Virus record (IMG/VR): IMGVR_UViG_3300035698_012088
Location: 1-64,000 of that record
From: a virus
Length of the DNA: 64,000 nucleotides
Reading direction: 5' to 3' (one strand)
Shown here: one piece after another, positions 1,469-28,272 of the stretch
Layout: each line of letters begins with the position of its first letter
How positions within the stretch are numbered: position 1 is the first letter of the stretch
Notes under the pieces: generated by a model
What the model saw: the letters and a program-made list of their open reading frames with translations, nothing else
Database searches by the model: none
What the model was told of the DNA's origin: nothing
Made by a program: the position numbers and the translations under genes

Positions 1469-1975
1469 ATGTCTAAACGATCCACTTATGAAATTTTGCA
1501 TATATTCAACAAAGTTGCAGCAGAGATGATGCCAGGACAACCCCAGGCACCTGAACAGGGACAAGAATTGGATAATCTTAACGAAGAGATTACCAAGGAA
1601 AAACTCACCTCAGCAGAGCTTAGTTACAAAGAGCAGATTTCAAAGATCAGAGCTGACAATCTTAACAGAAAGATTGATAAGCTAAACAAACTACAGAAAA
1701 AGAGAGATGCAGAAGACAAACTTAGAGAAAGAGAAGAAGACGCAGCAGAGAAAGCCCAGCAAAAGCAAAAAGAAGATGAGCAGAAACAGCGCCTTGAACT
1801 TCAGGAAAGAGCAGCGCCACCTGTACCTGCCATGGGAGGAGTACCATCAGGGCAGAACTTAGGAGCCCTTTCCCCAGAAGAACAAAGTACCATGATGAAG
1901 ACAGCGGGTATCTTTAGAAACCAAGCAAGACAACTAAAACATTACATTGTGAGCAGACATGGAAAAGTACGGTGA
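1469..1975 (+). CDS. Hypothetical coiled-coil head-module protein
   Basis: AGGAGA RBS; charged coiled coil; KVAA and KTAG motifs. Confidence 0.8.
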   Translation: MSKRSTYEILHIFNKVAAEMMPGQPQAPEQGQELDNLNEEITKEKLTSAELSYKEQISKIRADNLNRKIDKLNKLQKKRDAEDKLREREEDAAEKAQQKQKEDEQKQRLELQERAAPPVPAMGGVPSGQNLGALSPEEQSTMMKTAGIFRNQARQLKHYIVSRHGKVR

Positions 1976-2144
1976 ATATTTGGAAGGTCTTAGAGAGATC
2001 TCAGACAGATTCAAGCAGAGAATATTGAAAAGAAAAGAGGAACAGAAACTACATGGCATCATCAACTCGAAACTTAAGAGGGGTCTTCATAAGCAGAGAA
2101 GAAGTGGAAAATCCCAAGGGGACAAGGAAACACCCAAAGAATAG
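1959..2144 (+). CDS. Possible small basic protein
   Basis: 61 aa, overlaps both neighbours; uncertain. Confidence 0.35.
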   Translation: MEKYGEYLEGLREISDRFKQRILKRKEEQKLHGIINSKLKRGLHKQRRSGKSQGDKETPKE

Positions 2145-2763
2145 ACATTTTCAAATAGACGATGAAGAAGAGGCTGATAAAGGTGAATATAAGTTTGGTG
2201 CCATCAGAAACGGAATGCAGGGAACATTGATCCCTTTAACTGGTGACAGAGGCGGGCCTGAAGGAGAACAGTCTGTATATGGTAGAATAGTAATAGGTAA
2301 AGTTTATTCAGGAGAAGACTGGGATGTAGTAGAAGATCTATTACCGGACTGCCTCTTAGAAGACGCAGATATAGAGCTATCTGAAGAAGGCACTGCAACT
2401 CTCATAGACTCCCTAGAGGACGCTAAGGCAGTCCAGGATAGGGAAGTACAGGAAAAGGCCCTTGAGCAGCAGCTACAAGCCTTAGAAGAGCAGAAGAAAA
2501 AAGAAGACTGTAGTAAAAAGATCAAGATTACTACAAAGTATGGCACCTATAAAGGTAAATGTGTAGATATTGTTAGAGACGGAGAGTACGTCATTTTAGT
2601 ATACAGCGAAGACGCAGCCATATTCACCCCTCCTGTATCTGATGAGAAAATCTCATTATGTTGTGAGGGACACACCTGTGAAGTATATTATAAGGGAGTA
2701 GAAGTATCACTCTCCAGCTTCAACATCTGTTTACAGATTATGGAACTAGTTAAGGACAAGTAA
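2053..2763 (+). CDS. Hypothetical protein
   Basis: 236-aa ORF with a TAATG junction to the next gene. Confidence 0.75.
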   Translation: MASSTRNLRGVFISREEVENPKGTRKHPKNRHFQIDDEEEADKGEYKFGAIRNGMQGTLIPLTGDRGGPEGEQSVYGRIVIGKVYSGEDWDVVEDLLPDCLLEDADIELSEEGTATLIDSLEDAKAVQDREVQEKALEQQLQALEEQKKKEDCSKKIKITTKYGTYKGKCVDIVRDGEYVILVYSEDAAIFTPPVSDEKISLCCEGHTCEVYYKGVEVSLSSFNICLQIMELVKDK

Positions 2764-4661: not shown

Positions 4662-4665
4662 AATA

Positions 4666-5178
4666 ATGAGTCAAAAATATTTAGATAAAGACGCTTTCTT
4701 TGAAGGATACGGTCAAATGGAGAAGGAAGCTAAATATAAGATGTTGCTTGCAGGCTTAGCCGCAGCAGGTCTAGGTGGGGCAGCTTATGCAGGGCGAGAT
4801 CAAATTGGGAAAGGAGTGGGTAAAGCTCTCAACTCTGATATGGGAGCCGACCTAACAGGTAAGTTCCTTAATACACAATCTGGTCAAAAGGTAATGGGCT
4901 CTCTAGCCGAAATGGAAGGTGGAGGTAAAGCCTTAGGTACACCTGCTGGCCAAGATGCCATGAAGAAGTTTATTACTAACCCGGATAATGTTGGTTCTAT
5001 GTTTACAGCAGGAAAGAATATGGCCACTCAGGGAGCCAGTTCTCTTTGGGAGAAGCTTAAGACTATGCCTCAGGATCATCCATATGCTACTACTGCAGCT
5101 ATAGCTATTCCACTAATGCTTGCTATGTATAGAATGGGCCAAAGTGGACAGCAACAGCCTAGAGGATATTACAGATAA
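4666..5178 (+). CDS. Gly-zipper putative internal virion protein
   Basis: Leader AFFEGYGQMEKEA, then LLAGLAAAGLGGAAYAG; second hydrophobic segment near the C-terminus. Confidence 0.7.
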   Translation: MSQKYLDKDAFFEGYGQMEKEAKYKMLLAGLAAAGLGGAAYAGRDQIGKGVGKALNSDMGADLTGKFLNTQSGQKVMGSLAEMEGGGKALGTPAGQDAMKKFITNPDNVGSMFTAGKNMATQGASSLWEKLKTMPQDHPYATTAAIAIPLMLAMYRMGQSGQQQPRGYYR

Positions 5179-5954: not shown

Positions 5955-5964
5955 GGACTACACT

Positions 5965-6342
5965 ATGAATAATGAAGCTTTTATGTTAGGGTATATTGAG
6001 AAATACGGTGCTGCACCAATTGTTCCTGGAGGACCGGGAAGAGGTGGGGGTAACATTATTAGTAATATAGTCATGGGTGGAGCAGAGGTGTCTTTCCAGA
6101 TTTTGGATAGACTTAAAACTGCAGCTCTATTAGCTCCTATTTTAGCAGGAGCGGCTGGGGGCATGGCAGCTTCCATGGTAACAAGTCCTGGTAAGAGAGA
6201 TATGGACACACTAGGTCAAGAGATTGTGAATGCAGAATTGAAGCAGTCTTTAGCTCAAACTAAGAGAAGAAGATCGCTATCAATGGAAGAAGATAATGCC
6301 CCAGAGAAGGGCAAAGAAAGAGAGGTTTTTCTAGGTGCATGA
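5965..6342 (+). CDS. Gly-zipper putative internal virion protein
   Basis: Leader AFMLGYIEKYG; ILAGAAGGMAASM segment. Confidence 0.7.
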   Translation: MNNEAFMLGYIEKYGAAPIVPGGPGRGGGNIISNIVMGGAEVSFQILDRLKTAALLAPILAGAAGGMAASMVTSPGKRDMDTLGQEIVNAELKQSLAQTKRRRSLSMEEDNAPEKGKEREVFLGA

Positions 6343-7551: not shown

Positions 7552-7561
7552 GAGGTAGGTT

Positions 7562-10500
7562 ATGTCCCTATTAATGGAAGTCCTAAAAGAGGCAGGGATG
7601 CCAATTAAAGGATCTATACTCTCAGAGGTTTTAACTGCTCCTCAACCACCATCAGAAGAGATTGGTGTGTCTGAAGATCAGCTTTTGGACTTTGATGACT
7701 ATACTTCAGCTAGACTACAGCTCTTTGATAAGACTCAAATTGCTGTTCAAGAAGCATTCCCCTTAGAGAATGATCAGTATAGCTTATCTGTACAGGATGT
7801 AAAATATAGAGATCCTGACAAATACACCTTATCTGATGAGAAGAAGGCTGTTTCAGAGGGACAGACTTTAGGTAGAAGATTAGTAGGTAGATATGTCGTT
7901 ACAGATAAAGTTACGGGCAAAGTAGCTAATACCTCTGGACTCAGAACTCTTATCAATGTACCCTATTTTACACAGAGAGGGACTTTTATTAGAAATGGGA
8001 CTGAGTATGCTATTCCTAAGCAGCTTAGACTTATTCCTAATGTGTATACAAGACACACTGCTGATGGTAAAGTAGAATCCCAATTTAATGTAGCTCCTAG
8101 AACAGGACCCTCCTTTAGAATACAGATGGATCCTGCTACTTCTCTTTTCTATATGAAAGTATCTAATAGAAAGATTCCGCTATATCCTGTGTTAAGGAAG
8201 ATGGGTGTTTCAGATGAAGACCTTAAGAACACTTGGGGAGGGGGAGTCTTCAAAGTAAACCAGGCCCAGAGAGTATCCCCACATGCTATCAACTGGATGA
8301 GAGACTCCATTGAGAGAGGCGAAGCCATGTTGGAGAAGCAAGGAGAGGAGAATACAGAGCCTGATGAACAGGACAGTGCCAAATTAAGGGCTTACTTCAA
8401 TAATATGGGGTTAGACCCAGAGGCTACTACTTTAACTCTAGGAAAGCCTTATTCTAATGTTACACCGGAGACACTATTAGATTCTACTTCTAAGATCCTA
8501 AAGGTATCTAGAGGACAGGCAGAGACAGATGATAGAGATTCTTTAGCTTTCCAGACTGTACATGATGTTTCAGACTTCCTTCCAGAGAAGATACGACATG
8601 ACCAGAATAGAGTTATGAGAAATTACTTATGGAAGCTAACAGGTAAAGGAGGAGACCCTTCTGTTATTCCTTCTGCTGCCTTGGACAAACACTCAGCTCA
8701 TCTATTTAATACTGCTAAAATTGCACAAGCTATTGAGGAGATATCTCCTTTAGATATATACAATCAGAATCACAGAGTTGTGAGACTAGGAGAGGGAGCA
8801 CTACCCTCTATAGAATCTGCGCCAAGAGAGGCCAGAAATGTGCAACCAAGTTATCTTAACTTCATAGATCCAATCAGGTCACCTGAATCGCTTAGAATTG
8901 GACTGGATCTATTCTTCTCTAGACAGGTGAGAAAGGGCCCAAAGAATCTATTGTACTCTAAGTTTCTTGATCCTAAATCAGGAAAATTACAGTGGGTGAG
9001 TTCTAGGAAAGCAGCTAATGCTATTATAGGATTTCCCGATGCGTTAAAGACTAAAGACAGATATGTTCCAGCTATGTATAAATCTAAAGGTATCTACTAC
9101 GTTCCTAGGGAAAAGGTAGATATGTTTGTACATTCCGGGGATGACCTCTTAAGTGTTGGGGGTACAACAGTACCTTTAGCTTCTGGTATTAAGGGAATGA
9201 GATTCTTGATGGGATCTAAGTATCCCTCTCAATCTCTTCCTCTAGTAAATAGAGAAGCGCCCAATGTACAGAGTCTTGCTAAAAATGGACAGCCTCTATA
9301 CGAATACCTGAGTAAATTCATGGGAGTTAAGAGAGCAGAGGCAGCAGGTGTTGTGACTAAAGTGGGTAAAGAGTCTATGACCATAAAATATGACAACGGT
9401 GAGACTAAAAATGTAGATCTCTACAATACTTTCCCGTTTAGTAGAAAGACCTTCATGCATAATTATCCTACTGTAAAGCTAGGAGATAGGGTTGAGAAGG
9501 ATGGACTATTAGCTACAAGTAACTTCTCCACAGATACCGGAACTGGAGCCCCAGGCAGAAACCTTAGGGTTGCCTACATGGGATATAGAGGTAAGAACTT
9601 TGAAGACGCTACTGTAATCTCAGAAGAAGCCGCTAAGAAGTTAACCTCAGAGCAGATGTATGTAGAGAAAAAGGAAGAGCAAGAGGGACTTAGGTTTAGT
9701 AAGAATACTTTTAGAAATCTATTCCCAACTAAGTTTAAAAAAGACCAATTAGAGAACATTGGGGATAATGGAATAGTAAAACCGGGAACTGTATTAAACT
9801 ACGGTGATCCTATGATCTTAGCCTCCAAAGAGAGAATACCATCCTTGTCTACTCTAGGCAGAAGGGTAAGTACAGATGAATCAAAGGTATGGGAACATTA
9901 TTCTCCAGGAGTTGTGACCAGTGTATCTAAGACTAAGAAGGGCCATTCTGTCTTTGTTAGAAGTAACTCTCCTATGCAAGTTGGAGATAAACTAGCCTTA
10001 CCTTGGGGAGCCAAAGGGATTATCTCAGAGATAGTAAAACAAGAAGATATGCCCAGGGATGCTCAAGGAAAAGCCTTAGAGGTTCTATTAAGTCCTCTAG
10101 GCATTATCTCTAGAACAAATAGTGCTCAATTGGTTGCTGCAGCATTAGGTAAAGTAGCTGCTAAAACAGGTAAGCCTTATGTCCTCCCAGGATTCATGAA
10201 TGAGAACATGGTTGACTTTGCTATGAAAGAATTAGCAGACAATGGTTTAACTGATACAGAAGAATTATATGACCCTTTACTAAAGAAGAGTATACCTAAG
10301 GTTTTTGTAGGTAACACTTATGTGTATAAGCTACAACAAATAGCAGAGTCTAAAGGTAAAGCTAGATCAACAGGATCTTACTCACAAGATGAAGACCCAA
10401 GTAGAGGTGGAAAGTCAGGCTCTAAGCATGTAGGATCTCTGGATCTACAGGCACTACTATCTCATGGAGCTACAGAGGTTATCAAAGACCTTAAGCTCAT

Positions 10501-13500
10501 CAAGGGACAAAAGAATGATGACTTCTGGAGACAGGTTAAATTAGGGAAGACTCCAGTCTCTCCCAAGTCTACCTTTGTATATGACAAGTTTAAAGCACTA
10601 CTTAGGTCTGGAGGAATTAACCTACAAGAGACCTCAACAGCAGATTCTATATATGGTATGACTAATACCCAGATGGTTAAACTTAGTGGGAATAGACAGA
10701 TTAAGACAGGTCAAACTTTCTCAGCTAAGCATCTTAAACCTATCCCAGGTGGTTTATTTGATCCACAGGCAACAGGTTCCTTAGCTGGAGGAGATAGATT
10801 TTCTTATATCCAATTACCCGATCCTTTGCCTAACCCTATGATGGAGAATGCTTTAAGGGTTATCTTAAGTAAGACTCAGAAAGAGTTTGATGAAGTCCTA
10901 GAAGGTGGTTTATCAGTGGACGGTAAAACTGGTGGACAAGCTATGAAGGCCCTATTAGACAAGGTATCCTTACCTCAACTAAAAGCTCAAGCAGAAAATG
11001 AAATCAGATTTGGGTCAGCATCTAGAAAAGACGCTGCTGTTAAGAGATTTGGATTTCTCACTGCTATGGAGAAACATGGGGTGAAGCCTTCTGACTTTAT
11101 GATGGATAGAGTTCTTGTGCTACCTCCTAAATATAGACCAGTAACTAGACAAGGTGGGCTAACCATGTCTAATGATATGAATTATATGTATAAGGCTTTA
11201 ACTGAAGCTATAGAAGACTATAATGATTCTGAAGGATTACCTGAACCAGTAAGAAAAGAAGCTAGGTCCAATTTGGTAAACATCCATAGAGCCACTATTG
11301 GAATGATAGACCCAGCTCATCCTAAACTAGTACAAAAGAACATAGGTGGGATTTTAAAACAACTATTTGGTAAAGGCTCCCCAAAAGCTTCCTTTGTACA
11401 AAGAAAGGTTATGGAAACCAATATGGATATATCAGGTTTAGCTGTAGTATCTCCTAATCCTAATCTAAAGTTAAATGAAGTAGGGCTCCCTATAGAAAAA
11501 GCTTGGGAGTTATATGAACCTTGGATTATAAGACATATGGTTAGAAACAATACTCCAGCTACAGCAGCTGCTAAAGCAGTCAAGAATAAAGACAGGTCTG
11601 CTCTAGCCGCACTTCAAGAGGTAGTGAAGCAAAGACCTGTGATAGTAAACAGGGCTCCAACACTACATAAATATAGTATGATGGCCTTTAAACCTAAACT
11701 AGTTAAAGGGGAAACGCTACAAGTATCTCCTGCTATTGTAGGACCTTTTACTATGGACTTTGATGGGGATTCAATAAGTGGTTGCGTTGCAGTGAGTTAT
11801 GACTTTTTTATAGATAATATAGAAAAAACAGTTGAAAAAAGCAAAGGGGATAGTATAGTAGTTAATACGAAAAAGGAGGCAAATATGCCAATTTCAAAAA
11901 CTGCTAAGCTGTCAACAAATGTGAGTATTATTCCTATAGAGAATATGCCTAGAATAGAAGCGTCTAAAATAGAGAAATCAGATAATGTTTCAGAATGGGA
12001 TGTTCCATTAGGGGTGAATGTATGTGCTTTAGATAGAGAAACTAGAGAACTCAAACATTATGCTGTGACTAAGTTTTCAGAACACAGAAACCTAAAGATG
12101 TTTGATGTAACCTTAGGTAAATGGTACTCCAAGGTAATAACTGTATCTGAGGACCACTCCCTGGTTGGATATGTAGATGGAGTTTTAGAACTACTTAAGC
12201 CAGAAGAGGCCCTACATAAAATGGTACCTGTGTCTAAAGCTCTACAGCACTATTCCTCTGAAGACACTATATATAACATGTCTAATGGAGAAGTAGATAT
12301 CTATTTAAATAAAGAGTCGGGTATTGTTTTAGGTGCTCTTATAGGAGATGGTTGGGTGGATGTAGGGAATACCTGCTATTTAACTTCTGCTTATCCTGAA
12401 TTCATAGACTACATAGAAGGATGTTTAATTCAAGGAGCTATTCCTTTACACAATAAAGATAAAGTACTCTCCTCCCACTATTATGATAGAAAAAATATTG
12501 AAGGTGTGGTAAAACCTGTTAATAAGACTACTTTTTCTTTAACAGCTAAAGCAAAAGAACTAATAGGTCAAAAAATAGGAAAAGGGTTTGATAAGAAAGT
12601 TATTCCACAAGAGTGTTTAAGAGCACAAAGATCTCATCTTATAGGTTTACTCATAGGCCTTATGTCTACAGATGGTTCTATTTTCTGTAAGAAGGGATTA
12701 AAGAGAAATAAAGAATTTTGGAACTGCGGAGCTAGTTATTGTACTCTTTCTACTAATTTAAGAGATTCTTTTGTACATCTTTGTAAACTATTGGGTATTA
12801 GAACCACAGTGTCTATGTTTATAACTAAACTTAAAGGTAATACCGGGTATACAATTACTCTATGTAAGCCTGACTTTGTTAAGTTCTGTAGAGAGAATGA
12901 AGCTTTCCATATGCCTATTGCACATAAACAAGACGCACTAGAGTTATTCTTAAGTAAGGTAGATATGGAATCAAACACAGCCCTAGCTGTAGATAAAGTG
13001 CCGTATCCTAAAAATCTGCACTCTGTGTTTTTACAGTTAAATAAACAAGGTACTCCTGTGCTAAGCCCTTCTGGACTAAGTAAAGTCAATAAAGATGGAT
13101 TTATTTCTAGAATAAAGGCTTTAGAGTTTTCTAAAAAGCATTTACAGGATCTACCAGAAGATACTGTACATAGTTTTAAAGAATGGAGAACTTTAGTAAA
13201 AGATACAGAGGTTAATTGGGAGAGAGTAGAGAATGTATCAAAAAGAGAAGGACTAGAGACAGCTTATGATATAACAGTTCCAGGCCCTTTTACCTTTGCT
13301 ACTTCTGATGGAATAATTGTCCAAGATACTGCCTCTTATTCAGTTCCAGTATCTAAAGCAGCTGTTAAAGAGGCAATGGAAAAGATGTTACCGGAGAAGA
13401 ACTTATTATCAGTAAGAAATGACCTGCCTCACTATGTTCCGAGCCAAGAGTACATTCAGGGGCTATATTACAGTACTAAAGAGCCTACTAACAAAAAACC

Positions 13501-13591
13501 AGTTATATTCTTAACCAGAGCAGATGCTATGGCTGCATATAAGTCCGGTGAGATTAGAGTTGATGACCCTATTATTATAAAGGGCGAATAG
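7562..13591 (+). CDS. rpoBC: DNA-directed RNA polymerase: beta subunit fused to the N-terminal part of beta', intein-containing
   Basis: Beta motifs GTFIRNGTE, DPIRSPE, KNFEDATVISE, GDKL...KGIIS, SPLGIISR, ARSTGSYS; then beta' motifs GLFDP, VLPPKYRP, VGLP, NRAPTLH, DFDGD, PSQE. Confidence 0.93.
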   Translation: MSLLMEVLKEAGMPIKGSILSEVLTAPQPPSEEIGVSEDQLLDFDDYTSARLQLFDKTQIAVQEAFPLENDQYSLSVQDVKYRDPDKYTLSDEKKAVSEGQTLGRRLVGRYVVTDKVTGKVANTSGLRTLINVPYFTQRGTFIRNGTEYAIPKQLRLIPNVYTRHTADGKVESQFNVAPRTGPSFRIQMDPATSLFYMKVSNRKIPLYPVLRKMGVSDEDLKNTWGGGVFKVNQAQRVSPHAINWMRDSIERGEAMLEKQGEENTEPDEQDSAKLRAYFNNMGLDPEATTLTLGKPYSNVTPETLLDSTSKILKVSRGQAETDDRDSLAFQTVHDVSDFLPEKIRHDQNRVMRNYLWKLTGKGGDPSVIPSAALDKHSAHLFNTAKIAQAIEEISPLDIYNQNHRVVRLGEGALPSIESAPREARNVQPSYLNFIDPIRSPESLRIGLDLFFSRQVRKGPKNLLYSKFLDPKSGKLQWVSSRKAANAIIGFPDALKTKDRYVPAMYKSKGIYYVPREKVDMFVHSGDDLLSVGGTTVPLASGIKGMRFLMGSKYPSQSLPLVNREAPNVQSLAKNGQPLYEYLSKFMGVKRAEAAGVVTKVGKESMTIKYDNGETKNVDLYNTFPFSRKTFMHNYPTVKLGDRVEKDGLLATSNFSTDTGTGAPGRNLRVAYMGYRGKNFEDATVISEEAAKKLTSEQMYVEKKEEQEGLRFSKNTFRNLFPTKFKKDQLENIGDNGIVKPGTVLNYGDPMILASKERIPSLSTLGRRVSTDESKVWEHYSPGVVTSVSKTKKGHSVFVRSNSPMQVGDKLALPWGAKGIISEIVKQEDMPRDAQGKALEVLLSPLGIISRTNSAQLVAAALGKVAAKTGKPYVLPGFMNENMVDFAMKELADNGLTDTEELYDPLLKKSIPKVFVGNTYVYKLQQIAESKGKARSTGSYSQDEDPSRGGKSGSKHVGSLDLQALLSHGATEVIKDLKLIKGQKNDDFWRQVKLGKTPVSPKSTFVYDKFKALLRSGGINLQETSTADSIYGMTNTQMVKLSGNRQIKTGQTFSAKHLKPIPGGLFDPQATGSLAGGDRFSYIQLPDPLPNPMMENALRVILSKTQKEFDEVLEGGLSVDGKTGGQAMKALLDKVSLPQLKAQAENEIRFGSASRKDAAVKRFGFLTAMEKHGVKPSDFMMDRVLVLPPKYRPVTRQGGLTMSNDMNYMYKALTEAIEDYNDSEGLPEPVRKEARSNLVNIHRATIGMIDPAHPKLVQKNIGGILKQLFGKGSPKASFVQRKVMETNMDISGLAVVSPNPNLKLNEVGLPIEKAWELYEPWIIRHMVRNNTPATAAAKAVKNKDRSALAALQEVVKQRPVIVNRAPTLHKYSMMAFKPKLVKGETLQVSPAIVGPFTMDFDGDSISGCVAVSYDFFIDNIEKTVEKSKGDSIVVNTKKEANMPISKTAKLSTNVSIIPIENMPRIEASKIEKSDNVSEWDVPLGVNVCALDRETRELKHYAVTKFSEHRNLKMFDVTLGKWYSKVITVSEDHSLVGYVDGVLELLKPEEALHKMVPVSKALQHYSSEDTIYNMSNGEVDIYLNKESGIVLGALIGDGWVDVGNTCYLTSAYPEFIDYIEGCLIQGAIPLHNKDKVLSSHYYDRKNIEGVVKPVNKTTFSLTAKAKELIGQKIGKGFDKKVIPQECLRAQRSHLIGLLIGLMSTDGSIFCKKGLKRNKEFWNCGASYCTLSTNLRDSFVHLCKLLGIRTTVSMFITKLKGNTGYTITLCKPDFVKFCRENEAFHMPIAHKQDALELFLSKVDMESNTALAVDKVPYPKNLHSVFLQLNKQGTPVLSPSGLSKVNKDGFISRIKALEFSKKHLQDLPEDTVHSFKEWRTLVKDTEVNWERVENVSKREGLETAYDITVPGPFTFATSDGIIVQDTASYSVPVSKAAVKEAMEKMLPEKNLLSVRNDLPHYVPSQEYIQGLYYSTKEPTNKKPVIFLTRADAMAAYKSGEIRVDDPIIIKGE
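11771..13327 (+). mobile_element. LAGLIDADG intein (519 aa) immediately after catalytic DFDGD; Ser1, C-terminal Gln-Asp, Thr+1
   Basis: Removal restores DFDGD|TASYSVPVS (cf. DFDGDQMAVHVPLS). Block B VSEDHSL, endonuclease motifs LGALIGDG and IGLMSTDG, block F AYDITV. Confidence 0.88.
11832..11887 (+). promoter_or_regulatory. Putative internal promoter, RBS and in-frame ATG inside the intein
   Basis: TTGAAA(11832)-16-TATAGT(11854); AAGGAGG at 11873-11879; in-frame ATG 11885. Confidence 0.6.
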
Positions 13592-13613: not shown

Positions 13614-14279
13614 ATGTTAGATAAAGAGAGTTTACTAAGTAGTATCAGAAGTGCCATGGAGAAAGAGGCATATGCTCCTCCAGCTCCTATGCCTATGGAC
13701 CCAGCAATGGGAGCAGCTCCCCCAATGGATCCTGCAATGATGGGAGCACCCCCTATGGATCCTGCAATGATGGGAGCACCCCCTATGGATCCTATGGCAG
13801 GAGGAATGCCTCCAATGGACCCAATGGCTGGTGGAATGCCTCCAATGGACCCAATGATGGATCCAGCTATGGGTGGAATGCCTCCTATGGACCCTGCTGC
13901 AGTAATGGATCCAGCTATGGGTGGAATGCCCCCAGTTGATCCCGCAGTTGCAGACCCTCTAACTCCTGGTTCAGAAGCTGAAGCAGCCTCTACAGAGGCC
14001 ATTGAAAAGCTTATTGATACAGTGGAAAAGTTGGATAAAAAGGTTGGCTCATTAGAAGAAGGTGTTGTTCAGGCTTTAGATGCTCAAGGTATTATGCCCC
14101 CAGAACAAGCTCTAAATGATCCTCAAGAAGTACCTGAAGAAGAAGTTACTCCTGAGGAAGTTGGCTTTTCCGATGAAGTTCAGAAGTTAGCATCAAACCA
14201 AGCCCTTTGGGAAAAAGATCTAGCCTCTAGGAGAGAACCTCTACTTAATACCTTAAGAGATATTAGAAAGATGCTCTAA
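13614..14279 (+). CDS. Pro/Met-rich repeat protein, putative internal head protein
   Basis: AGGAG RBS; PPMDP repeats; MEKEA and QKLAS motifs. Confidence 0.8.
   Translation: MLDKESLLSSIRSAMEKEAYAPPAPMPMDPAMGAAPPMDPAMMGAPPMDPAMMGAPPMDPMAGGMPPMDPMAGGMPPMDPMMDPAMGGMPPMDPAAVMDPAMGGMPPVDPAVADPLTPGSEAEAASTEAIEKLIDTVEKLDKKVGSLEEGVVQALDAQGIMPPEQALNDPQEVPEEEVTPEEVGFSDEVQKLASNQALWEKDLASRREPLLNTLRDIRKML
13690..13945 (+). repeat. Degenerate 24-36 nt tandem repeats encoding (G)GxPPMDP(A)M
   Basis: Repeated cc(t/a)atgga(t/c)cc units. Confidence 0.8.
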
Positions 14280-14808: not shown

Positions 14809-17736
14809 ATGCCAAAAGTTCAGACAATAGGTCAAGTCTTAATAAAGAATGCCTTACCTGAAAATCTAAAGGAGTTTGAAGGCACCTTAGATAAGAAGGG
14901 TACCCAAAGGTTACTAGAGAGACTTGCTAAAGAAAACCCAGAAGAATATGTGGATACCTTGAAGAAGTTATCTGACATAGCTGCTGTGGTGTCTACTGAA
15001 TATGGAGGGGCAGCTTCTGTTGATTTAGCTTCACTTAGAACTCCCCCTTCTGTGGAAAGATATAAAGAGACAGTGAATGCAAAGGTTAGGTCTATATCCC
15101 AAAGCTCTAGTATCCCCATGGAAAAGAAGAGTGAGATGATTGTAACCTATCTTAGAAAGGTTAACCAAGAAGCACAGAAAAGAGTTTTAAATGCAGGAGC
15201 TGAGGTAGACAATATCTTCATCAATGCTATTAACCATGGATTTAGAGGTTCCCCCACTCAGGCTAAACAGCTTCTCTTTGGAGATGTCCTTAATGCTGAC
15301 CATAGAGGTAGAGCAATTCCTATTCCTGGGCTTAGTAGCTATGCTGGAGGAGTATCTCCCTTAGAATACTGGGCAGGGGCCTATGGTTCTAGAAAGGGAT
15401 ATGCTGATGTACAGTTTGCCACAGCAGATACTGGATACTTCGGTAAACAGATGGCCCTTATGGGTAATAGAGCTAGGATTACAGGAGAAGACTGCGGAGC
15501 AGATGATGTAGGTTTAGTAAGAGATGGGGATGATCCTGAGATTATAGGCACTATCCTCTCTAGAGATGTAGGGCCCTTTAAGAAAGGACATGAGCTAGAG
15601 AAACAAGATCTATCTGTTCTTAGAGATAAGAATGTAGTAACAAGATCCTTAGTAACTTGTCAACAAGATGAAGGTATTTGTCAGAAGTGTGCGGGCAAAA
15701 GAGAGAATAATGAGTATCCTCCTATGGGAGCCTTTGTAGGAATTACTGCAGCCAGAACAGTATCAGAACCAATGACCCAGGAGCTAGGGTTATGTCTTTG
15801 CGCCGCAACGACTTATGTAACAATGGCAGACCACAGCACCAAGCTTTTAAAGGACATCAAGTTAGGTGATTATGTACTTGGAGCTGATAAAAAAGGAAAC
15901 ACTTTTCCAACAAAAGTGCTTAATATTTTCAATCAGGGAGAGAAGGAAGTTTCAGAGATTGTATTTAAAGGGGCTTCTAGAGAAGAGAGGTCTATGGTAG
16001 CTACTTTAGATCATAAAATATTATCTAGAACTAGAAGTAACAGTAAAACAAAACTAGATATAAACCCCTGCGGATACAAAAATTCTAGATTTGGGGCGGT
16101 ACTCCCCTCTAAGTTTAAGGATAGTGGATTTACAGATAATAGCTATGATTTACTATTGGGGCTACTATTAGGAGATGGGGGATACTCTAAAGGAACACAT
16201 CAGGTAGCTTTTTCCTGCGACGACTCTACTCTATTAGAAGATATCAAAGACTATATGGGCTCTCTAGGACTGTACCTAAAGAAAAACAGCATCTGTAAAT
16301 ATATGGTAAACAGTTTAGAAGGCAAGGATAAAAAAGGCTGGAATAAACCTAATCCTTGTAAACAGTATTTACAGAAAACGGGACACTGGGGACAGATGTC
16401 TTATGAGAAATACATCCACCCCGAAGTATTAAATTCTTGGTCTAATGTTTCAGTAGCTAGACTTTTAAGTGGGCTATTTATAACTGATGGCAGTATTGGT
16501 TTCTCTAAACAAAGTGACTACCCTACTATAGAGTTCTGCAGCACTTCTGAAAGATTAGTGGAACAGGTTAAGCACTTATTGGAAAAGAGATTCGGTATCT
16601 ACAGTGGAGTGGTCTATGAGCAGGATAACACTAGAGGGTATGGAAAAAGAAATTTATATAGAGTAATTATAAGCAGAAAAGAATCCGTGTCTAAATTTAA
16701 AAATAATATTCCATTATTCGGCAAAAAGAAGAAACTATTGGATACTTGGAATAATTCTAACCTACAGGACGAGGCATATGTTATAAAAAGGGTATCTATG
16801 GAGAGTTTAGGAAAAAGACATACCATGGATATAGAAGTAGAACATCAGGATCACTTATTTGTTCTATCTAATGGTCTAATTGTATCAAATTCAGCTAAAC
16901 ATACTGGGGGTAATATTGGGAAAGATATTAAAGAGATAGAGGGGTTTGCAGAGATTAACCAATTCCTCCAAGTTCCTGAAAGATTTATTGGAGCTGCTAT
17001 ACTTGCCCCAGCAGATGGTAAAGTAACTAAAAAAGAGAAGGCCCCTCAGGGAGGGCAATATCTATATATTGGACAAGACAAAGTATATATTCCTCTGAGT
17101 AGGAAGTTGGATGTAGAAGTTGGAGATATGGTTGAAGCTGGGGACGCTATGACAGATGGAACACCTAACCCAGCAGAGATTGCCAGACATAAGGGATTAG
17201 GAGAGGGAAGGAAATACTTTGTACATAGATTCAGGAAGATGTTAGAAGATAATGGTATTCCACAGATGGTTAGAAATATAGAACCACTAGCTAGGAACTT
17301 CTTTGATAGAGTTAAAATAACAGATCCAGATGGAGTGGGAGGGTATGAGATAGGGGAAAGAATACCTTATTCTATGCTACAGAGAGAATATACTCCTAGG
17401 GTAGACTCTGAGACTATGTCTTTAAATAGAAGTGTGAACAAGTATCTAGAGAAACCAGTATTGCATTACACAATAGGCACAAAGATTACTCCTAAGATGG
17501 TTAAGTCCTTAAAAGAGATTGGATATGATAAGATATTAGTTAATGCTGAAGCTCCTGGTTTTGTTCCTGATGTAGTAAGATTGGCTGACAATACTTCTAC
17601 TGATCCAGATTGGAAAACAAGGTTGGCCAGTTTTGGACTAAAGAGATCCTTATTAGATTCAGTAACTCATGGCTCAACAAGTAAGCATGATTCTGCCTCA
17701 TTTGTCCCTAGTTTAATGAATCCGAGTACCCTATAA
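14809..17736 (+). CDS. rpoC: RNA polymerase beta' C-terminal part, intein-containing
   Basis: Bridge helix GSRKGYADVQFATADTGY; Zn site RSLVTC...GICQKC; trigger loop AARTVSEPMTQ...SAKHTGG. Confidence 0.92.
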   Translation: MPKVQTIGQVLIKNALPENLKEFEGTLDKKGTQRLLERLAKENPEEYVDTLKKLSDIAAVVSTEYGGAASVDLASLRTPPSVERYKETVNAKVRSISQSSSIPMEKKSEMIVTYLRKVNQEAQKRVLNAGAEVDNIFINAINHGFRGSPTQAKQLLFGDVLNADHRGRAIPIPGLSSYAGGVSPLEYWAGAYGSRKGYADVQFATADTGYFGKQMALMGNRARITGEDCGADDVGLVRDGDDPEIIGTILSRDVGPFKKGHELEKQDLSVLRDKNVVTRSLVTCQQDEGICQKCAGKRENNEYPPMGAFVGITAARTVSEPMTQELGLCLCAATTYVTMADHSTKLLKDIKLGDYVLGADKKGNTFPTKVLNIFNQGEKEVSEIVFKGASREERSMVATLDHKILSRTRSNSKTKLDINPCGYKNSRFGAVLPSKFKDSGFTDNSYDLLLGLLLGDGGYSKGTHQVAFSCDDSTLLEDIKDYMGSLGLYLKKNSICKYMVNSLEGKDKKGWNKPNPCKQYLQKTGHWGQMSYEKYIHPEVLNSWSNVSVARLLSGLFITDGSIGFSKQSDYPTIEFCSTSERLVEQVKHLLEKRFGIYSGVVYEQDNTRGYGKRNLYRVIISRKESVSKFKNNIPLFGKKKKLLDTWNNSNLQDEAYVIKRVSMESLGKRHTMDIEVEHQDHLFVLSNGLIVSNSAKHTGGNIGKDIKEIEGFAEINQFLQVPERFIGAAILAPADGKVTKKEKAPQGGQYLYIGQDKVYIPLSRKLDVEVGDMVEAGDAMTDGTPNPAEIARHKGLGEGRKYFVHRFRKMLEDNGIPQMVRNIEPLARNFFDRVKITDPDGVGGYEIGERIPYSMLQREYTPRVDSETMSLNRSVNKYLEKPVLHYTIGTKITPKMVKSLKEIGYDKILVNAEAPGFVPDVVRLADNTSTDPDWKTRLASFGLKRSLLDSVTHGSTSKHDSASFVPSLMNPSTL
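15793..16890 (+). mobile_element. LAGLIDADG intein (366 aa) in the trigger loop
   Basis: CLCAATT start, ATLDHK block B, LGLLLGDG and SGLFITDG, ends GLIVSN|S. Confidence 0.9.
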
Positions 17737-18465
17737 ATGCCAATAGATAAAAGACAAGATGATGATGGGCAGAGAAGGAAGAAAATGGCTCTTTGGGCTG
17801 TTGCTGGAATGGGGGCTGCAGCAGCTGGTGGCATTGGCTATATGATGTACAAGAACAAGGATAAGTTCCCTAAAGCCCAAGAAAACTTTAGTGCACCCTT
17901 TGGTATATCCTCAAAACAACAAAAATCTATTTTAGGTGGAAAAGATTTAAGTAAGAAGTTTAGTCCTGAGCAATGGGGATCCCTACAGGCTTGGAAAGGA
18001 CTCCACATCGCAGCATCTAAATTAAAATCTGGAGGTCATGATGTTCCTTTCCAGTCAGGCCTACACAGGAAGAAGGTTGCTTATAAAGACTTCTCCCCTA
18101 AGATATTAGAACAACTAGGATTTCAGAAGTCCATGATTGCTGTTCCAGAAAGGGGGCAAACTCAATGGACAACCTATAGACACCCCAAGACATTCCATCA
18201 CTTACACAAGCATAAGAAGGATTGGTATATGCATAGAGATAAATTCTTAGCACTTCAATTAGCTATGCAGAGGATTGTTGGAAGAGATATTGGAGCAGGA
18301 CTGGGGGCTGTAGGGTCAGGAATCCACCATCTTGCTACAGAAGGTATTCCTGGTGGAACGAGGTATATTAAGAATAAGTTGTCCGGTGCTCCCAATTTTG
18401 AGGATATAAGCAATGACCTTAAAGGGGACTATCCTTTGATCTTGAAGATAAAGAACCTATTATGA
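17737..18465 (+). CDS. Hypothetical protein with N-terminal hydrophobic Gly-rich segment
   Basis: ALWAVAGMGAAAAGGIGY segment; His-rich core. Confidence 0.7.
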   Translation: MPIDKRQDDDGQRRKKMALWAVAGMGAAAAGGIGYMMYKNKDKFPKAQENFSAPFGISSKQQKSILGGKDLSKKFSPEQWGSLQAWKGLHIAASKLKSGGHDVPFQSGLHRKKVAYKDFSPKILEQLGFQKSMIAVPERGQTQWTTYRHPKTFHHLHKHKKDWYMHRDKFLALQLAMQRIVGRDIGAGLGAVGSGIHHLATEGIPGGTRYIKNKLSGAPNFEDISNDLKGDYPLILKIKNLL

Positions 18466-18926
18466 ACAAAAGAGCTTATATAGAAGGATATTTGAGTAAG
18501 GAAGCTTCAGGGGATAACATGTTTACTGAAGATGCTGACATGACAAAACTGTTTGATGACTTCTCAAAGAACCCTAGAATCAAAATGTCTAAATTTATCC
18601 ACCCTATTTCTACTATACTTGGAGCAGGGCTGGGGACTTATGTAGGACATAGATGGAATAAACATGATCCCAGGAATGAAGATACTAAGAAAATGATTCT
18701 AGGAGGTACCGCTGGAGGTATGGCTGGATCATTTATAGGGTCCGTTGCCAAAGATAAAATGAGATGGCCCGAAGTAATAAACTTGATTAAGAATGTCAAG
18801 AACGTGCAGAAAAAGAGAAAACCTCTTAGAGCTATACTTGCTAGTCTGTTATCCGATGTAGCAGATTTAAAAGCAAGACCCGCTACTAAATTAACACCAG
18901 ATCCAGGTGATCTGTTGAATATATAG
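18462..18926 (+). CDS. Gly-zipper putative internal virion protein
   Basis: Leader AYIEGYLSKEAS; two GxxxG segments. Confidence 0.72.
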   Translation: MNKRAYIEGYLSKEASGDNMFTEDADMTKLFDDFSKNPRIKMSKFIHPISTILGAGLGTYVGHRWNKHDPRNEDTKKMILGGTAGGMAGSFIGSVAKDKMRWPEVINLIKNVKNVQKKRKPLRAILASLLSDVADLKARPATKLTPDPGDLLNI

Positions 18927-21973: not shown

Positions 21974-22002
21974 TTGTATACTTTTTAAAGTATAGGTATA
22001 TT
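21974..22002 (+). promoter_or_regulatory. Sigma70-like promoter
   Basis: Intergenic TTGTAT-17-TATATT. Confidence 0.55.
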
Positions 22003-22045
22003 ATTAGCAAAGGCATTTACTTTTAAGGATAGGTATTAACACATT

Positions 22046-23752: not shown

Positions 23753-23760
23753 GAGAAATT

Positions 23761-25188
23761 ATGATATCCAAAAGAATAAGAGCAGGCTTCTGGAATAATG
23801 ATAGACCAGCTGCATCTCTGTTACATATCTATGCTAATAAAGGTTTTGATAAAGACCAACTGCAGAAGATAGCTTCAGCTATTAGTCTAACCTTTGAAGA
23901 TATTAAACCAGAGAAGGGTAGTTCATTTGTACACCTTATTACTACTGGTTCAGGAGAGTTCTACGGACCAAACAGTAATGCTGACTGGTTCAATGAATCT
24001 AACAGATCCTTTACTTTCTCTGAGGGGTTGTTCAAATCAGCTCAATTACAGGGAGGTTTGACTGGCTTCCATAAGACTTATAGAGAGTTTGGGGGAGTAT
24101 ATAGAAACCATAACAACAGTAAAAAAGGCTTTGATAAAGAAGGTGAGGTAGTCTGGGAAGGTTACAATGAACCTATGCATAGAGGGGAACTAGTAGTTAA
24201 ACTGAAGGATGACCTTTGGCATGATGACTTAGAGAAACTAGCCTCTGGTGAGCCAGTATTCTGGTCCCAAGGTTGTGGAGTACCTGAAGATATCTGTTCT
24301 ATCTGTGGCAATAGAGCCAAGACAAGGCAGAACTACTGTGAACATCTTAAGTATGCTAAGCTAGAAATGGATAAAGAGGGTCACCAGGTATTTGCCATCA
24401 ATGACAGACCCCACTTCCATGATATCTCTAGAGTTACAGTCCCTGCTGATAAGATTGCTTTTACTTTAGGAAAGATTGCTTCAGAAGGTGTAGATGAAAC
24501 TATCATGTTTGAGACAGATGATTCAGGGATGTACCTCCCCCTTAGTCTTATTAACAAGTTAGCATCTAGGAAAGAAGCTAGTAGAGCAGAGCTTATTTAT
24601 AAGTTAGCTAAGATAGAGAAAGAAGTAGACCTAAAACCTGAAGGGATGTTTAAAGACTTAGCAGAAGCCTTTGATCTTCCAGAAGGTACTGAGGATGAAA
24701 TTGTTGGAAAACTTAAGGATATTCCAGAAAATAAGCTGTTTTCTTCCCTTTCCAATAATAACAGCATGTTGACACCGAACAGTTTTATACGTATAGTAGT
24801 TAAAAGAGAACCTGAGGATTTCCCAGGTTTACCTAAAGAGTTAGAAAGTATCTTTTCAAACCTTAAGGATAATGGAGACCTAAACGAGTTAATGGAGGAT
24901 GGTAGTTATTCCTCTTGTGGTCGCGCAGATAGGAAGTCAGAAGAAAGTGTTAAAGGGTTGTCTGATAGCATCTCTCTTGATCCAGAGCCAGTAGAGCACA
25001 GAATCATAAAGATCTCTATAACTGGTGGAAAACAAAAAGAAATGGATAAAGAGTCTGCATCTTATGAACCTACTTCAGCAACTAGATACATAGCAAAAGA
25101 ATACGCTAAGTACCAGTTGTCGTTTTTAGCCAACAGTGGCAAAGAAGAAAATCTAAAGTATGCTGTGTTACAAAACAGAGTAGGCTAA
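23761..25188 (+). CDS. Prohead maturation protease
   Basis: NSNADWF, RNHN (candidate catalytic His), WSQGC (candidate catalytic Ser), CSICGN...YCEH Zn knuckle; lies upstream of scaffold and capsid. Confidence 0.78.
   Translation: MISKRIRAGFWNNDRPAASLLHIYANKGFDKDQLQKIASAISLTFEDIKPEKGSSFVHLITTGSGEFYGPNSNADWFNESNRSFTFSEGLFKSAQLQGGLTGFHKTYREFGGVYRNHNNSKKGFDKEGEVVWEGYNEPMHRGELVVKLKDDLWHDDLEKLASGEPVFWSQGCGVPEDICSICGNRAKTRQNYCEHLKYAKLEMDKEGHQVFAINDRPHFHDISRVTVPADKIAFTLGKIASEGVDETIMFETDDSGMYLPLSLINKLASRKEASRAELIYKLAKIEKEVDLKPEGMFKDLAEAFDLPEGTEDEIVGKLKDIPENKLFSSLSNNNSMLTPNSFIRIVVKREPEDFPGLPKELESIFSNLKDNGDLNELMEDGSYSSCGRADRKSEESVKGLSDSISLDPEPVEHRIIKISITGGKQKEMDKESASYEPTSATRYIAKEYAKYQLSFLANSGKEENLKYAVLQNRVG
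24769..24797 (+). promoter_or_regulatory. Near-consensus sigma70 promoter inside the protease gene
   Basis: TTGACA-17-TATAGT, about 400 nt upstream of the scaffold/capsid genes. Confidence 0.65.
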
Positions 25189-25195
25189 GGAGACA

Positions 25196-26335: not shown

Positions 26336-26347
26336 GGAGAACTTATT

Positions 26348-26776: not shown

Positions 26777-26788
26777 AGGAGATATACA

Positions 26789-27298
26789 ATGGGAACACTC
26801 ACTCCAGCACAATACTACGACAATGTTATCACTATTGTTAGTGGTAGTAATGGAATGCACGACCTTCAGTACAGAGCCGCTCCAGCAACTGGTGAAACAT
26901 TTGACAGAGGAAGTCTTGTTTCATTAGATGGTAGCGGAAACCTAATTGCAGGCTGTGCCGGTACCGCAATGCCAATGTGGGCATTAAACTCAGTAGATGA
27001 CTTCGATGTCAACGCAGATGTCGGAAACTTTTCAGGTGGGTTCATCGCCACTATTCCAGCCACAGGGGGCTATGAGATCTTTACTACCGAGTTTGACACT
27101 GGTGGTACTTATACTTATAACACACTGTTGACTGCCGCACTAACCACTGATGTTGGTTTAGTTACACCCGCCGCTGGCGCAAACTATAATGATTTGATCA
27201 TTGTTGGTATTGTAAGTCAAGGCGAGACCACAGGGATCTATGACCAAGCAATTCTTTATTTCTGGCCATTATTCATCCCAGCAATTGACATCACATAA
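26789..27298 (+). CDS. Probable head decoration/capsid stabilising protein
   Basis: Beta-rich 169-aa protein directly upstream of the capsid gene. Confidence 0.6.
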   Translation: MGTLTPAQYYDNVITIVSGSNGMHDLQYRAAPATGETFDRGSLVSLDGSGNLIAGCAGTAMPMWALNSVDDFDVNADVGNFSGGFIATIPATGGYEIFTTEFDTGGTYTYNTLLTAALTTDVGLVTPAAGANYNDLIIVGIVSQGETTGIYDQAILYFWPLFIPAIDIT

Positions 27299-27321
27299 AC
27301 AAGATATAAGGAGATTATACA

Positions 27322-28272
27322 ATGATAGAACCTAAAGTTAGGGCAATGAATGAAGCCGTCATAAACGGTCTCACATCAGACGATCCTTATATCCAGAAAG
27401 AAGCACAGAATGGAGTCAATGACTTCCTCCGCATTAGAGCCCGTGAAGACGGTTTCTGCAGAAGAATTCAGCCTCCTGTCCCTGTGACTCCTGCTGATCT
27501 AGACCGTCAAGTTGATACTGTTAAGCCAGTTATCGTTAAGGACATGGAGCCAAACACTCCTAGTGCTTATACGGTTCCCTTTGGTGCAGTGCCAATGAAC
27601 CATTATATGGACGCACCTAGATACCGTGTCATGTTTGACCGTATTCTCAGTCATAGATTTACTGCAGATGTGGCCAACCTTTTGACATATGATCTGGATA
27701 TCAGACAAGTCTTTAACGACCTCATGCTTAAAGACATTCTCGCAGAAGAAGACAGAAAGTATATCGCAGTTGTGGATACTGTCTGTGGAACACTTAATGC
27801 AGCTGTCCGTAGTGAAGTTGCATCCAAAGGCTATGTTACTGTTGGTGGCTTGGACAGACAAGCTCTTGCTGAAGCAATGAAGGGTATTCCTTCAACTAAC
27901 CGTCACCTCAGCCCTGCTGTTGCACTTATCAATAACATTACCATCTGGGACGTTGTTGCATTAGTCAGAGAGCAAGTTGGTGGAGACCTATCTGAAGAAC
28001 TCTTCGTTAATGGCTTCGCTGAGAGACAGATCATGGGTCTTAAGTGGTTTATCACCATCAAGACTGATCTAGTCGCAACCAATGACCTCTATATGTTTGC
28101 AGCTCCTAAGTTCCTCGGGGACTTCTACGTCCTTGAAGACGTGACTGTAAGCACAAAACATGAGAACTATATGTTTGAAATGTTTGCTTATGAGATGATT
28201 GGCGGAACCGTCAAGAACACTGCTGCTGCTGCCAAAGCCGCATTCAGTGGTTCACTAGTTGCTTGGGTGTAA
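27322..28272 (+). CDS. Major capsid protein (probable HK97 fold)
   Basis: Position, strong RBS, codon-usage shift, downstream terminator; REDGFCRRI and DILAEEDRK segments. Confidence 0.8.
   Translation: MIEPKVRAMNEAVINGLTSDDPYIQKEAQNGVNDFLRIRAREDGFCRRIQPPVPVTPADLDRQVDTVKPVIVKDMEPNTPSAYTVPFGAVPMNHYMDAPRYRVMFDRILSHRFTADVANLLTYDLDIRQVFNDLMLKDILAEEDRKYIAVVDTVCGTLNAAVRSEVASKGYVTVGGLDRQALAEAMKGIPSTNRHLSPAVALINNITIWDVVALVREQVGGDLSEELFVNGFAERQIMGLKWFITIKTDLVATNDLYMFAAPKFLGDFYVLEDVTVSTKHENYMFEMFAYEMIGGTVKNTAAAAKAAFSGSLVAWV

Follow-up and report, generated by a model that had tools for sequence, protein, structure and literature searches.

A hydrophobic-x-Lys-x-Ala motif in the head module of an uncultured salt-lake phage is a probable cleavage code of a gp21/assemblin-fold maturation protease

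We analysed the first 64 kb of the 159,412-bp IMG/VR virus record IMGVR_UViG_3300035698_012088 (the window, 64,000 nucleotides in full), a linear record, about 82% complete, of an uncultured salt-lake phage that carries nearly all of its genes on the plus strand. Many otherwise unrelated proteins of its head module share a short motif in which a Lys is followed, two positions later, by a small residue, and we consider this motif, with a probability of roughly three in four, to be the cleavage code of a maturation protease encoded by the open reading frame (ORF) at 23761-25188. The evidence consists of the enrichment of the motif, its conservation, the positional logic of its sites and the fold of the protease, from which we infer cutting and its location. 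A preliminary description of this DNA had proposed such a code, of the form [E/Q]-K-x-[A/G/S], as the mark of head cargo in 1469-28272, including the RNA polymerase (RNAP). Its core, a maturation-protease code of Lys-x-small specificity, is supported by enrichment, conservation and fold, while the RNAP as tagged cargo, the prediction of packaging and the requirement for [E/Q] are not. ORFs are named below by their start coordinates, G000 stands for the studied record, and its relatives are labelled G001, G003, G004, G005 or with L-numbers.

Two forms of the motif were counted, a strict one, [LIVMF]-[EQD]-K-x-[AGS], and a loose one, [EQD]-K-x-[AGS], and both were compared with shuffles of each protein. 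The ORFs of 1469-28272 contain 36 strict copies, where 7.5 ± 2.7 are expected (z 10.7) and 1000 shuffles never gave more than 18, and 61 loose copies, where 28.8 ± 4.9 are expected (z 6.6); the latter number is close to the 50-60 copies previously estimated by eye. The density of strict copies in these ORFs is 4.09 per 1000 amino acids (aa) versus 0.93 in the remaining genome, so the proposed enrichment holds against the rest of the genome as well as against composition-keeping shuffles. With the RNAP genes left out, the head module contains 28 strict copies against 4.4 expected (z 11.5). The tail and glyco genes (28507-63762), described earlier as sparser in the motif, carry 6 strict copies against 5.5 expected, which is chance. 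At least one loose match is present in 15 of the 22 module ORFs, that is, in most but not all of them, as had been noticed, and seven ORFs are individually significant (p<0.01). The ORFs of 1469-4661, the putative portal among them, have no strict copy (0.9 expected), and therefore the tagged block, strongly enriched as it is, begins at 4666 and not at 1469.

Every example quoted in the preliminary description was located: MEKEA at residue 18 of the 4666 ORF and residue 15 of the 13614 ORF, LQKIAS at residue 209 of the 18972 ORF and residue 34 of the 23761 ORF, LEKLAS at residue 157 of the latter, EQKTA at residue 118 of the 25196 ORF, LDKQA and LEKTAS at residues 147 and 224 of the 22046 ORF, and IEKYG at residue 11 of the 5965 ORF, together with IQKEA in the capsid protein (residues 24-28) and VLKEAG (residues 7-12) and LEKQG (residue 257) in the RNAP.

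Control motifs with reversed order, with K changed to R, with E and K swapped or with altered spacing are at chance in the head module, as are K..A, R.A and E.A in head proteins (dots stand for any residue), and KA is depleted there. When some 80,000 gapped three-residue patterns were counted without choosing a motif beforehand, KEA, K.A..E, L.K.A, QK.A and K.AS ranked first or close to it. The remaining high-ranked patterns are unrelated words, many of them rich in Pro and Met, and those with MDP and DPA are due to the Pro/Met repeats of 13614-14279. None of the other protease codes [LI].E, [AGS].E, [VLI].AS and Phi.K[SAG] (Phi, a hydrophobic residue) is enriched in head proteins (z ≤ 0); [LI].E, as a matter of sequence statistics only, occurs 40 times against 44.8 expected (z -0.8), and Phi.K[SAG] 19 times against 24.0. 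The count of K.[AGS][AS] is 35 against 15.5 expected (z 5.0). Synonymous codons vary at the sites, which indicates that the signal resides in the protein and not in the DNA.

The pattern extends to relatives. In 33 related viral contigs with capsid identities of 33-67%, some of them near-duplicates, the 10-kb stretches upstream of the capsid gene contain about 320 strict copies in total against about 73 expected, nearly all contigs being enriched; downstream of the capsid gene the total is about 40 against about 30, and no contig is clearly enriched. For 18 relatives pooled with G000, the density of K.A is 15.1 per 1000 aa in the head modules and 4.05 in the tail genes. The pooled logo has L, I, F, M or V at position -2 from the Lys in 56% of the sites, Glu at -1 in only 20%, and Ala or Ser at +3 in 43%. 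Based on the frequencies at -2 and -1, the family-wide core reads as hydrophobic-x-K-x-A (Phi-x-K-x-A), with Glu or Gln before the Lys as a local preference; the K-x-small part of the specificity proposed earlier is thus retained and its [E/Q] reduced to a preferred residue. In ortholog alignments at 21-46% identity, K-x-A sites appear as conserved islands that are often flanked by gaps.

Homologs in cultured phages were found by tblastn. Capsid homologs with 26-28% identity are encoded by Salmonella phage Arash (OQ632216) and Vibrio phages D69, D148 and D181; the annotated major capsid protein of Arash, gp226, is 26% identical to the 27322-28272 product. Protease homologs are Arash gp222 (E 8e-26), D69 0270 (E 1e-25), their counterparts in D148 and D181 and, more distantly, gp19 of Bacillus phage G (E 3e-6). 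On the head side of the genome, Arash has 38 copies of Phi-x-K-x-A (z 13.8) and D69 has 36 (z 12.6), with 5.8 expected in each, and on the tail side of both the motif is at chance. Both phages have the capsid site at residue 25, which in Arash gp226 reads LVKEA (residues 25-29), and protease sites near residues 25-28 and 212-216; Arash gp220, gp223 and gp225 also have site-dense parts. Arash and D69 resemble the studied phage in protease, capsid and head-side enrichment, although their capsid proteins are only distantly related to the studied one. In phage G the motif is restricted to the protease and a few N-termini. Its gp19 has seven Phi-x-K-x-[AGS] copies against 2.1 expected (LVKTA at residue 41 and LEKVA at 246, for example), and N-terminal copies are found, within 5176-29676, in the portal gp14 (MAKQA at residue 16), gp20 (LKKTA at 8) and gp9 (LSKVA at 18); the capsid protein gp27 has none in its N-terminal region and two matches at residues 72 and 276. 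The records label the Arash homolog a ‘structural protein’, those of D69 ‘hypothetical’ and that of phage G ‘gp19’, the last of which has been named a head maturation protease (PMC12484599).

The product of ORF 23761-25188, which the preliminary description had taken for the protease, is probably a His/Ser enzyme of the T4 gp21/herpesvirus-assemblin fold, as judged from structural models. AlphaFold2 (AF2) predicts a disordered leader (residues 1-41), a catalytic domain (~42-237), a disordered linker (238-259) and a helical C-terminal domain, with a mean confidence (predicted local distance difference test, pLDDT) of 80 for the whole protein and of 85 for the catalytic domain folded alone (predicted template-modelling score, pTM, 0.80). 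Compared with 48,161 chains, the catalytic-domain model matched T4 gp21 first (5jbl_A; Z 9.2, root-mean-square deviation 2.9, 127 of 165 residues aligned) and the varicella-zoster virus (VZV) protease second (1vzv_A; Z 8.9), the proteases of human cytomegalovirus and Kaposi’s sarcoma-associated herpesvirus scoring 6.2 and 5.4; the top two matches of the whole-protein model are likewise gp21 and the VZV protease. Residues N71, D75, H104, H117, S169, C179, C182, C193, D221 and S223 are invariant in alignments of 40 and 22 homologs, and H58 is invariant too. The serine of WSQG, named in the preliminary description, is S169. In the candidate catalytic pair, His117 and Ser169, the order, His then Ser, is that of gp21. 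HK97 gp4-type proteases (Peptidase_S78), which cut after the Lys of Phi-x-K-[S/A/G], gave no Pfam match and are absent from the listed fold matches.

Sites stand at both borders of the catalytic domain, which, judging by the alignments and the model, is the arrangement expected of a maturation protease that releases itself. LQKIA lies inside the segment 1-41, where pLDDT is below 50, and LGKIA, with K238 and A240 unchanged in all 40 homologs, opens the disordered linker 238-259 and has counterparts in Arash gp222 (LEKVA at residue 216), D69 (LQKVA at 212) and phage G gp19 (LEKVA at 246).

Several results weigh against this interpretation. For no member of the family is a cleavage product on record. 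The best unrelated fold, MCE, scores Z 7.3 over 87 residues versus Z 9.2 for gp21; Foldseek against the PDB found nothing significant with either the whole-protein or the domain model; and hhalign of the 40-sequence protease profile against T4 gp21 also found nothing (probability 0.2%). No Pfam peptidase family, PF03420 (Peptidase_S77, MEROPS S77) included, matched the ORF at E ≤ 0.01 or the 40 homologs at E ≤ 1. Given the non-significant Foldseek and hhalign results, the support for the protease assignment is moderate and at the level of the fold. Another conserved copy, the third, is LEKLAS (residues 157-162); it sits in a helix of the folded catalytic domain, so some conserved matches need not be cut sites, and it may act in self-inactivation or have a structural role. 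Because the homologs are not independent of one another, the counts of conservation and depletion overstate the number of events. Finally, the published mass spectrometry (MS) of Arash virions gives protein-level coverage only and mentions neither a protease nor cleavage (PMC10585845), its supplement being a gene table without peptide lists. Searches of the protease against PDB sequences (phmmer and profile search) and for PHROG-named matches were equally negative.

Two further features of the protease were observed. Just after Ser169 there is a zinc-ribbon-like insert (24295-24339, residues 179-193) with the invariant C179, C182 and C193, followed by a His in G000; gp21 (212 aa) is not known to have such a Cys-rich motif. 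In five relatives the catalytic segment is about 380-640 residues longer, the ORF reaching 863-864 aa in L002 and L003, and the extra length probably reflects an intein. One long protease homolog, P0191, contains a LAGLIDADG domain; the inteins of G000 are in both RNAP genes.

The positions of the sites in the other head proteins agree with processing of the same kind. The capsid N-arm site IQKEA (nucleotides 27391-27405), already pointed out in the preliminary description, belongs to a capsid family with more than 1,000 metagenomic proteins in public data. In a sample of 118 full-length homologs among the 120 best matches, K-x-A is present within the first 40 residues of 117 of the 118, a few with a one-residue shift of register, and the capsid bodies are depleted 2.6-fold of K.A, with 42 against 110 expected, and also of Phi-x-K-x-[AGS], with 24 against 76.

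The 25196-26335 product, a putative scaffold by position only, has six loose sites, all in residues 23-212, and three strict ones against 0.44 expected (p 0.0085), and its positional equivalents in relatives are motif-rich. In the 22046-23752 product there are six strict sites, where 0.66 are expected (p<0.0005), and the C-terminal half is free of sites. At ortholog identities of 21-38%, its islands at residues 35 and 115 are kept in 24 of 24 and 20 of 24 orthologs, and LEKTA (K226) is kept in 18 of 24 with gaps on both flanks. The 18972 ORF has five strict sites against 0.82 expected (p 0.0015), and K515 of its VEKEA (residues 513-517) is kept in 17 of 26 orthologs; an ESM Atlas search with this ORF gave no usable lead.

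A similarly motif-dense 341-aa ORF, comparable to the core proteins, lies on the minus strand at G000 71652-72677 (L048:2653-3678, minus strand), 7.6 kb past the end of the window. It has seven strict copies against 0.37 expected, spread across residues 86-326, no Pfam match and no homolog among the fetched head-module loci. It is part of a three-gene minus-strand cluster (69070-72677), and its product may belong to the core or the interior of the head despite being encoded away from the module.

A distinct arrangement is found in small proteins with short leaders. The first 22 residues of the G000 ORFs 4666, 5965 and 18462 include a common pattern, A-[FY]-x-x-G-Y-x(1-4)-K-x-[AG]. Leaders of this type (AFxxGY-Phi-x-K-x-A) occur in five or six small proteins of G004, in two of the L007/L009 relative and in one or two of the other relatives. 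In the 13614 ORF, the protein after the leader consists largely of Pro/Met-rich repeats (MDPAMMGAPP-like), and the junction MEKEA/YAPPAP is kept by proteins at the same position in G001 (LTKEA/YAPPAP), G004 (LQKEG/FVPPTPP) and G003 (LKKNA/FNP). In T4, capsid-targeting sequences (CTS) end at the gp21 site. The leaders described here are likewise short and N-terminal, are carried by otherwise unrelated proteins and end at the motif site. By analogy with the T4 CTS, the AFxxGY-Phi-x-K-x-A leaders probably double as capsid-targeting signals, a comparison that also draws on PMC5694885.

We propose the following sequence of events. The protease, the scaffold and core proteins and the internal proteins would co-assemble inside the procapsid, where the protease would then cut at hydrophobic-x-Lys-x-(Ala>Gly,Ser). 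The capsid N-arm would lose about 26-28 residues, and the catalytic domain would be freed by its own cuts near residues 38 and 240. The site-dense parts of the core proteins (residues 33-266 of the 22046 product, the 25196 and 26348 products and parts of the 18972 product) would be chopped to short peptides, possibly together with the product of the distant ORF at 71652-72677, and the short N-terminal leaders would be clipped from the small Gly-zipper and Pro-rich proteins. The conserved positions i, i+2 and i+4 fit one face of an extended strand. Either of two scissile bonds would fit the motif (an arrow marks the cut): Phi(P3)-x-K(P1)↓x-A(P2'), with a hydrophobic P3 as in T4, or the assemblin-like Phi(P5)-x-K(P3)-x-A(P1)↓. 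A cut after Ala would match the x-Ala↓Ser of assemblin at the sites where the next position is Ala or Ser (43%), and would bring a herpesvirus Ala↓Ser geometry to a phage. Tryptic MS would not reveal a cut after Lys.

The proposed system shares features with known ones. The proteases T4 gp21, phiKZ gp175 and SPN3US gp245 each process many head proteins, which they cut at short motifs, and they also cleave themselves; the propeptides of SPN3US hold several cleavage sites (PMC5694885, PMC10052503). T4 is the closest in structure and organisation: gp21 is the best fold match, the order portal ... protease-scaffold-capsid is found here too, a short motif whose two fixed positions are two residues apart recurs in many head proteins, sites are dense in the core proteins, and an N-terminal piece of the capsid protein is lost in T4 and predicted to be lost here. 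The differences are that no sequence or profile similarity to gp21 is detectable, that the code is (L/I)-x-E↓ in T4 and Phi-x-K-x-A here, that gp21 has 212 aa and the protein here 475 aa, with an insert rich in Cys and a C-terminal domain that is large and helical, and that cutting, known in T4, is a prediction here. With phiKZ gp175 and SPN3US gp245 it would share many head and ejection substrates and self-release of the catalytic domain, and those phages also pack a multisubunit RNAP in the head; however, the code there is A/S/G-x-E↓, [AGS].E being at chance here, and the RNAP there has five split subunits instead of a beta/beta' fusion in two genes. The phiKZ and SPN3US proteases gave no sequence match in the cultured-phage protease search. 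Assemblin (MEROPS S21) cuts at (V/L/I)-x-A↓S, the Ala↓Ser rule. It resembles the present enzyme as the second-best fold match (VZV), and it releases itself at sites that flank the catalytic domain, as is predicted here, but P3 would be Lys here instead of Val or Leu, [VLI].AS is at chance here, no sequence similarity was found, and the one system belongs to a phage and the other to a eukaryotic virus.

Codes of prohead proteases are already known as a kind, although, to our knowledge, for few phages; the Lys-x-Ala rule is what appears new. No paper describing it was found in the literature searched, in which subscription journals are thinly covered. Every characterised gp21-fold enzyme known to us, T4 gp21 among them, cuts after Glu. 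A broader reading, which we put forward tentatively and would not bet on, is that the gp21/assemblin-fold protease of this clade switched from cutting after Glu to a Lys/Ala rule and, together with the Tyr-rich leader, forms an address-and-trim system for cargo. The clade concerned is large and mostly uncultured, and includes the cultured phages Arash and D69 and, with its more distant protease homolog, phage G. Cutting after Glu has been described for the prohead proteases of SPN3US and the phiKZ type (PMC5694885, PMC10052503). If the address-and-trim rule were true, the mature head proteome and the loading of engineered cargo would be predictable from sequence.

The RNAP (7562-13591 and 14809-17736) is where the motif loses its force. 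The preliminary description takes this enzyme to carry the tag, to be a further substrate of the protease and hence to be marked as head cargo, which we regard as unlikely. It is true that the two genes have eight strict copies against 2.4 expected (z 3.6), that VLKEAG lies 7 residues from the start, and that a separate N-terminal RNAP piece of G004 begins MTSLSHLLEKDA. However, the family-wide form Phi-x-K-x-A occurs seven times against 4.5 expected, which is not significant. Four RNAP orthologs were found by searching the records of relatives (a locus search with the RNAP as single query returned none), and none of the five strict sites of the large subunit (residues 257, 374, 644, 1132 and 1169) is kept in them; VLKEA is found in G004 alone and is missing from the other three. 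The matches that are conserved (IVKPG, LGKVA, FGKGS, APTLHKYS) appear, from the alignments, to be universal polymerase motifs. One further match, LDKKG at residue 27 of the 14809-17736 product, reads LDKKG or LDKNG in G004, G005 and Arash gp216; its flanks are apparently conserved too, and it may thus be structural rather than a cut site.

Packaging is a separate matter from processing. The RNAP genes lie inside the head module, and in the virion MS of Arash the RNAP subunits gp206 and gp216 (beta/beta') rank first and fifth by spectral count (PMC10585845), both of which make packaging plausible; the same data list 116 ‘virion’ proteins, so carry-over is possible (PMC10585845). In SPN3US, 42 head proteins, the virion RNAP beta subunit included, are packaged uncleaved (PMC10052503, PMC5694885). 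The RNAP is therefore probably carried in the virion without being a conserved protease substrate. For the same reason the tag would mark substrates and not all cargo, and its proposed use as a predictor of packaged proteins is not supported: the motif is missing from the putative portal and from several other proteins of the module, and Phi-x-K-x-[AGS] within the first 40 residues, present in 11 of the 22 module proteins, is also frequent outside the module (46 of 196), which makes it unfit for that purpose.

Cleavage by the 23761 product has to be weighed against the possibility that the motif is bound and not cut, as a docking or targeting signal for the procapsid interior, the scaffold or the helical C-terminal domain of the protease. 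Enrichment and conservation fit binding as well as cleavage, the AFxxGY-Phi-x-K-x-A leaders resemble a targeting sequence, and one conserved copy is in a helix of a folded domain. Nevertheless, the sites are placed as processing sites are, about 15-35 residues from N-termini, at the borders of the protease domain and in dense arrays along core proteins; the depletion in capsid bodies is expected of a cut site and not obviously of a docking site; and the characterised relatives of the fold all use such motifs as cut sites. We consider docking improbable. Still less credible is that another agent reads the motif, either a host protease or a lysine-modifying enzyme for which K-x-A would mark lysines. 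The Lys is indeed the most conserved position and the protease assignment is only fold-level, yet in all the relatives that were tested, from G000 through Arash and D69 to, in part, phage G, the motif goes together with the family of ORF 23761; the hosts span a salt-lake organism, Salmonella and Vibrio, which speaks against a host enzyme; and the protease bears the motif at its own domain borders. That the motif has no specific function and arises from a helical composition with much Lys, Glu and Ala, or from old internal repeats in scaffold-like proteins, has very little left in its favour: a number of the proteins that carry it are probably helical with a high content of E, K and A, and LEKLA-type words are frequent in coiled coils, but this reading is already largely refuted by the control motifs, which are flat with KA depleted, and is opposed by the z of 10.7 against composition-keeping shuffles, by the presence of the motif in unrelated non-helical contexts (Gly-zipper and Pro-rich proteins, the capsid N-arm) and by its conservation where the flanks vary.

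If the cleavage code is as we propose, the specificity of the ancient gp21 fold is plastic, with a Lys/Ala code across a large clade; mature termini could be annotated in ‘dark-matter’ genomes; the ‘structural protein’ Arash gp222 and its homologs would gain a function; and the leader-bearing small proteins would be likely injected cargo. The code is directly testable, since the Salmonella phage Arash and the Vibrio phage D69 can be grown in culture and virion MS data exist for Arash. The features discussed above are compiled in Table 1.

Table 1. Features of the head module and of related loci. Coordinates refer to the window unless a relative is named.
Feature	Coordinates	Strand	Basis or remark
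Small Gly-zipper protein, Tyr-rich leader MSQKYLDKDAFFEGYGQMEKEA	4666..5178	+	AFxxGY-Phi-x-K-x-A type
Small Gly-rich protein, leader MNNEAFMLGYIEKYG	5965..6342	+	AFxxGY-Phi-x-K-x-A type
RNAP beta fused to N-terminal part of beta', with intein	7562..13591	+	Pfam Rpb2_6 (E 4e-46), Rpb1_2, intein
Pro/Met-rich repeat protein, leader MLDKESLLSSIRSAMEKEA followed by YAPPAP	13614..14279	+	3 strict copies vs 0.12 expected
RNAP beta' C-terminal part, with Hint/LAGLIDADG intein	14809..17736	+	Pfam
Small Gly-zipper protein, leader MNKRAYIEGYLSKEAS	18462..18926	+	Weak Pfam glycine-zipper match
Conserved head-module protein, 718 aa	18972..21128	+	9 loose sites; Arash gp218 homolog (E 2.8e-9)
Head-internal protein candidate, 568 aa	22046..23752	+	11 loose sites, all in residues 33-266
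Probable prohead (capsid-maturation) protease, 475 aa	23761..25188	+	Invariant residues, fold match, self-sites
LQKIA, residues 34-38, predicted N-terminal propeptide end	23860..23874	+	K-x-[AGS] in 29/30 orthologs
His117 codon, candidate catalytic His	24109..24111	+	Invariant in homolog alignments
Ser169 codon (FWSQGC), candidate catalytic Ser	24265..24267	+	Invariant in homolog alignments
LGKIA, residues 236-240, predicted self-release site at the C-terminal end of the catalytic domain	24466..24480	+	28/30 orthologs
Putative scaffold/core protein, 379 aa	25196..26335	+	Between protease and capsid genes
Small head-module protein, 142 aa	26348..26776	+	VQKSA at residue 13, LEKLA at 37, QEKEA at 43; p 0.009
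Major capsid protein, 316 aa	27322..28272	+	PHROG major head protein, weak (E 4e-4)
Relatives with lengthened protease segment	L002:5334-7100, L003:5447-7231, L005:5288-7075, L017:4266-6821, L026:2195-3979		

The genes from the protease onwards follow the order 23761 (protease), 25196, 26348, 26789 and 27322 (capsid). Pfam and PHROG searches across the module returned the RNAP beta/beta' and intein domains of 7562-13591 and 14809-17736 and weak PHROG matches for a portal (2763-4661) and for the major head protein (27322-28272), and blastn of the head module against cultured phages gave zero nucleotide matches. The 26789-27298 product, 169 aa and encoded just upstream of the capsid gene, is a putative decoration protein by position; it is Lys-free, and the idea that this reflects avoidance of the protease was rejected on finding that its orthologs carry 2-10 Lys. 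The record starts with a gene for a radical-SAM/4Fe-4S protein (138-842, Pfam E 8e-14), which precedes the head module, and beyond the window a candidate sigma factor (G000 67417-68139, weak Sigma70_r2 match) has no leader.

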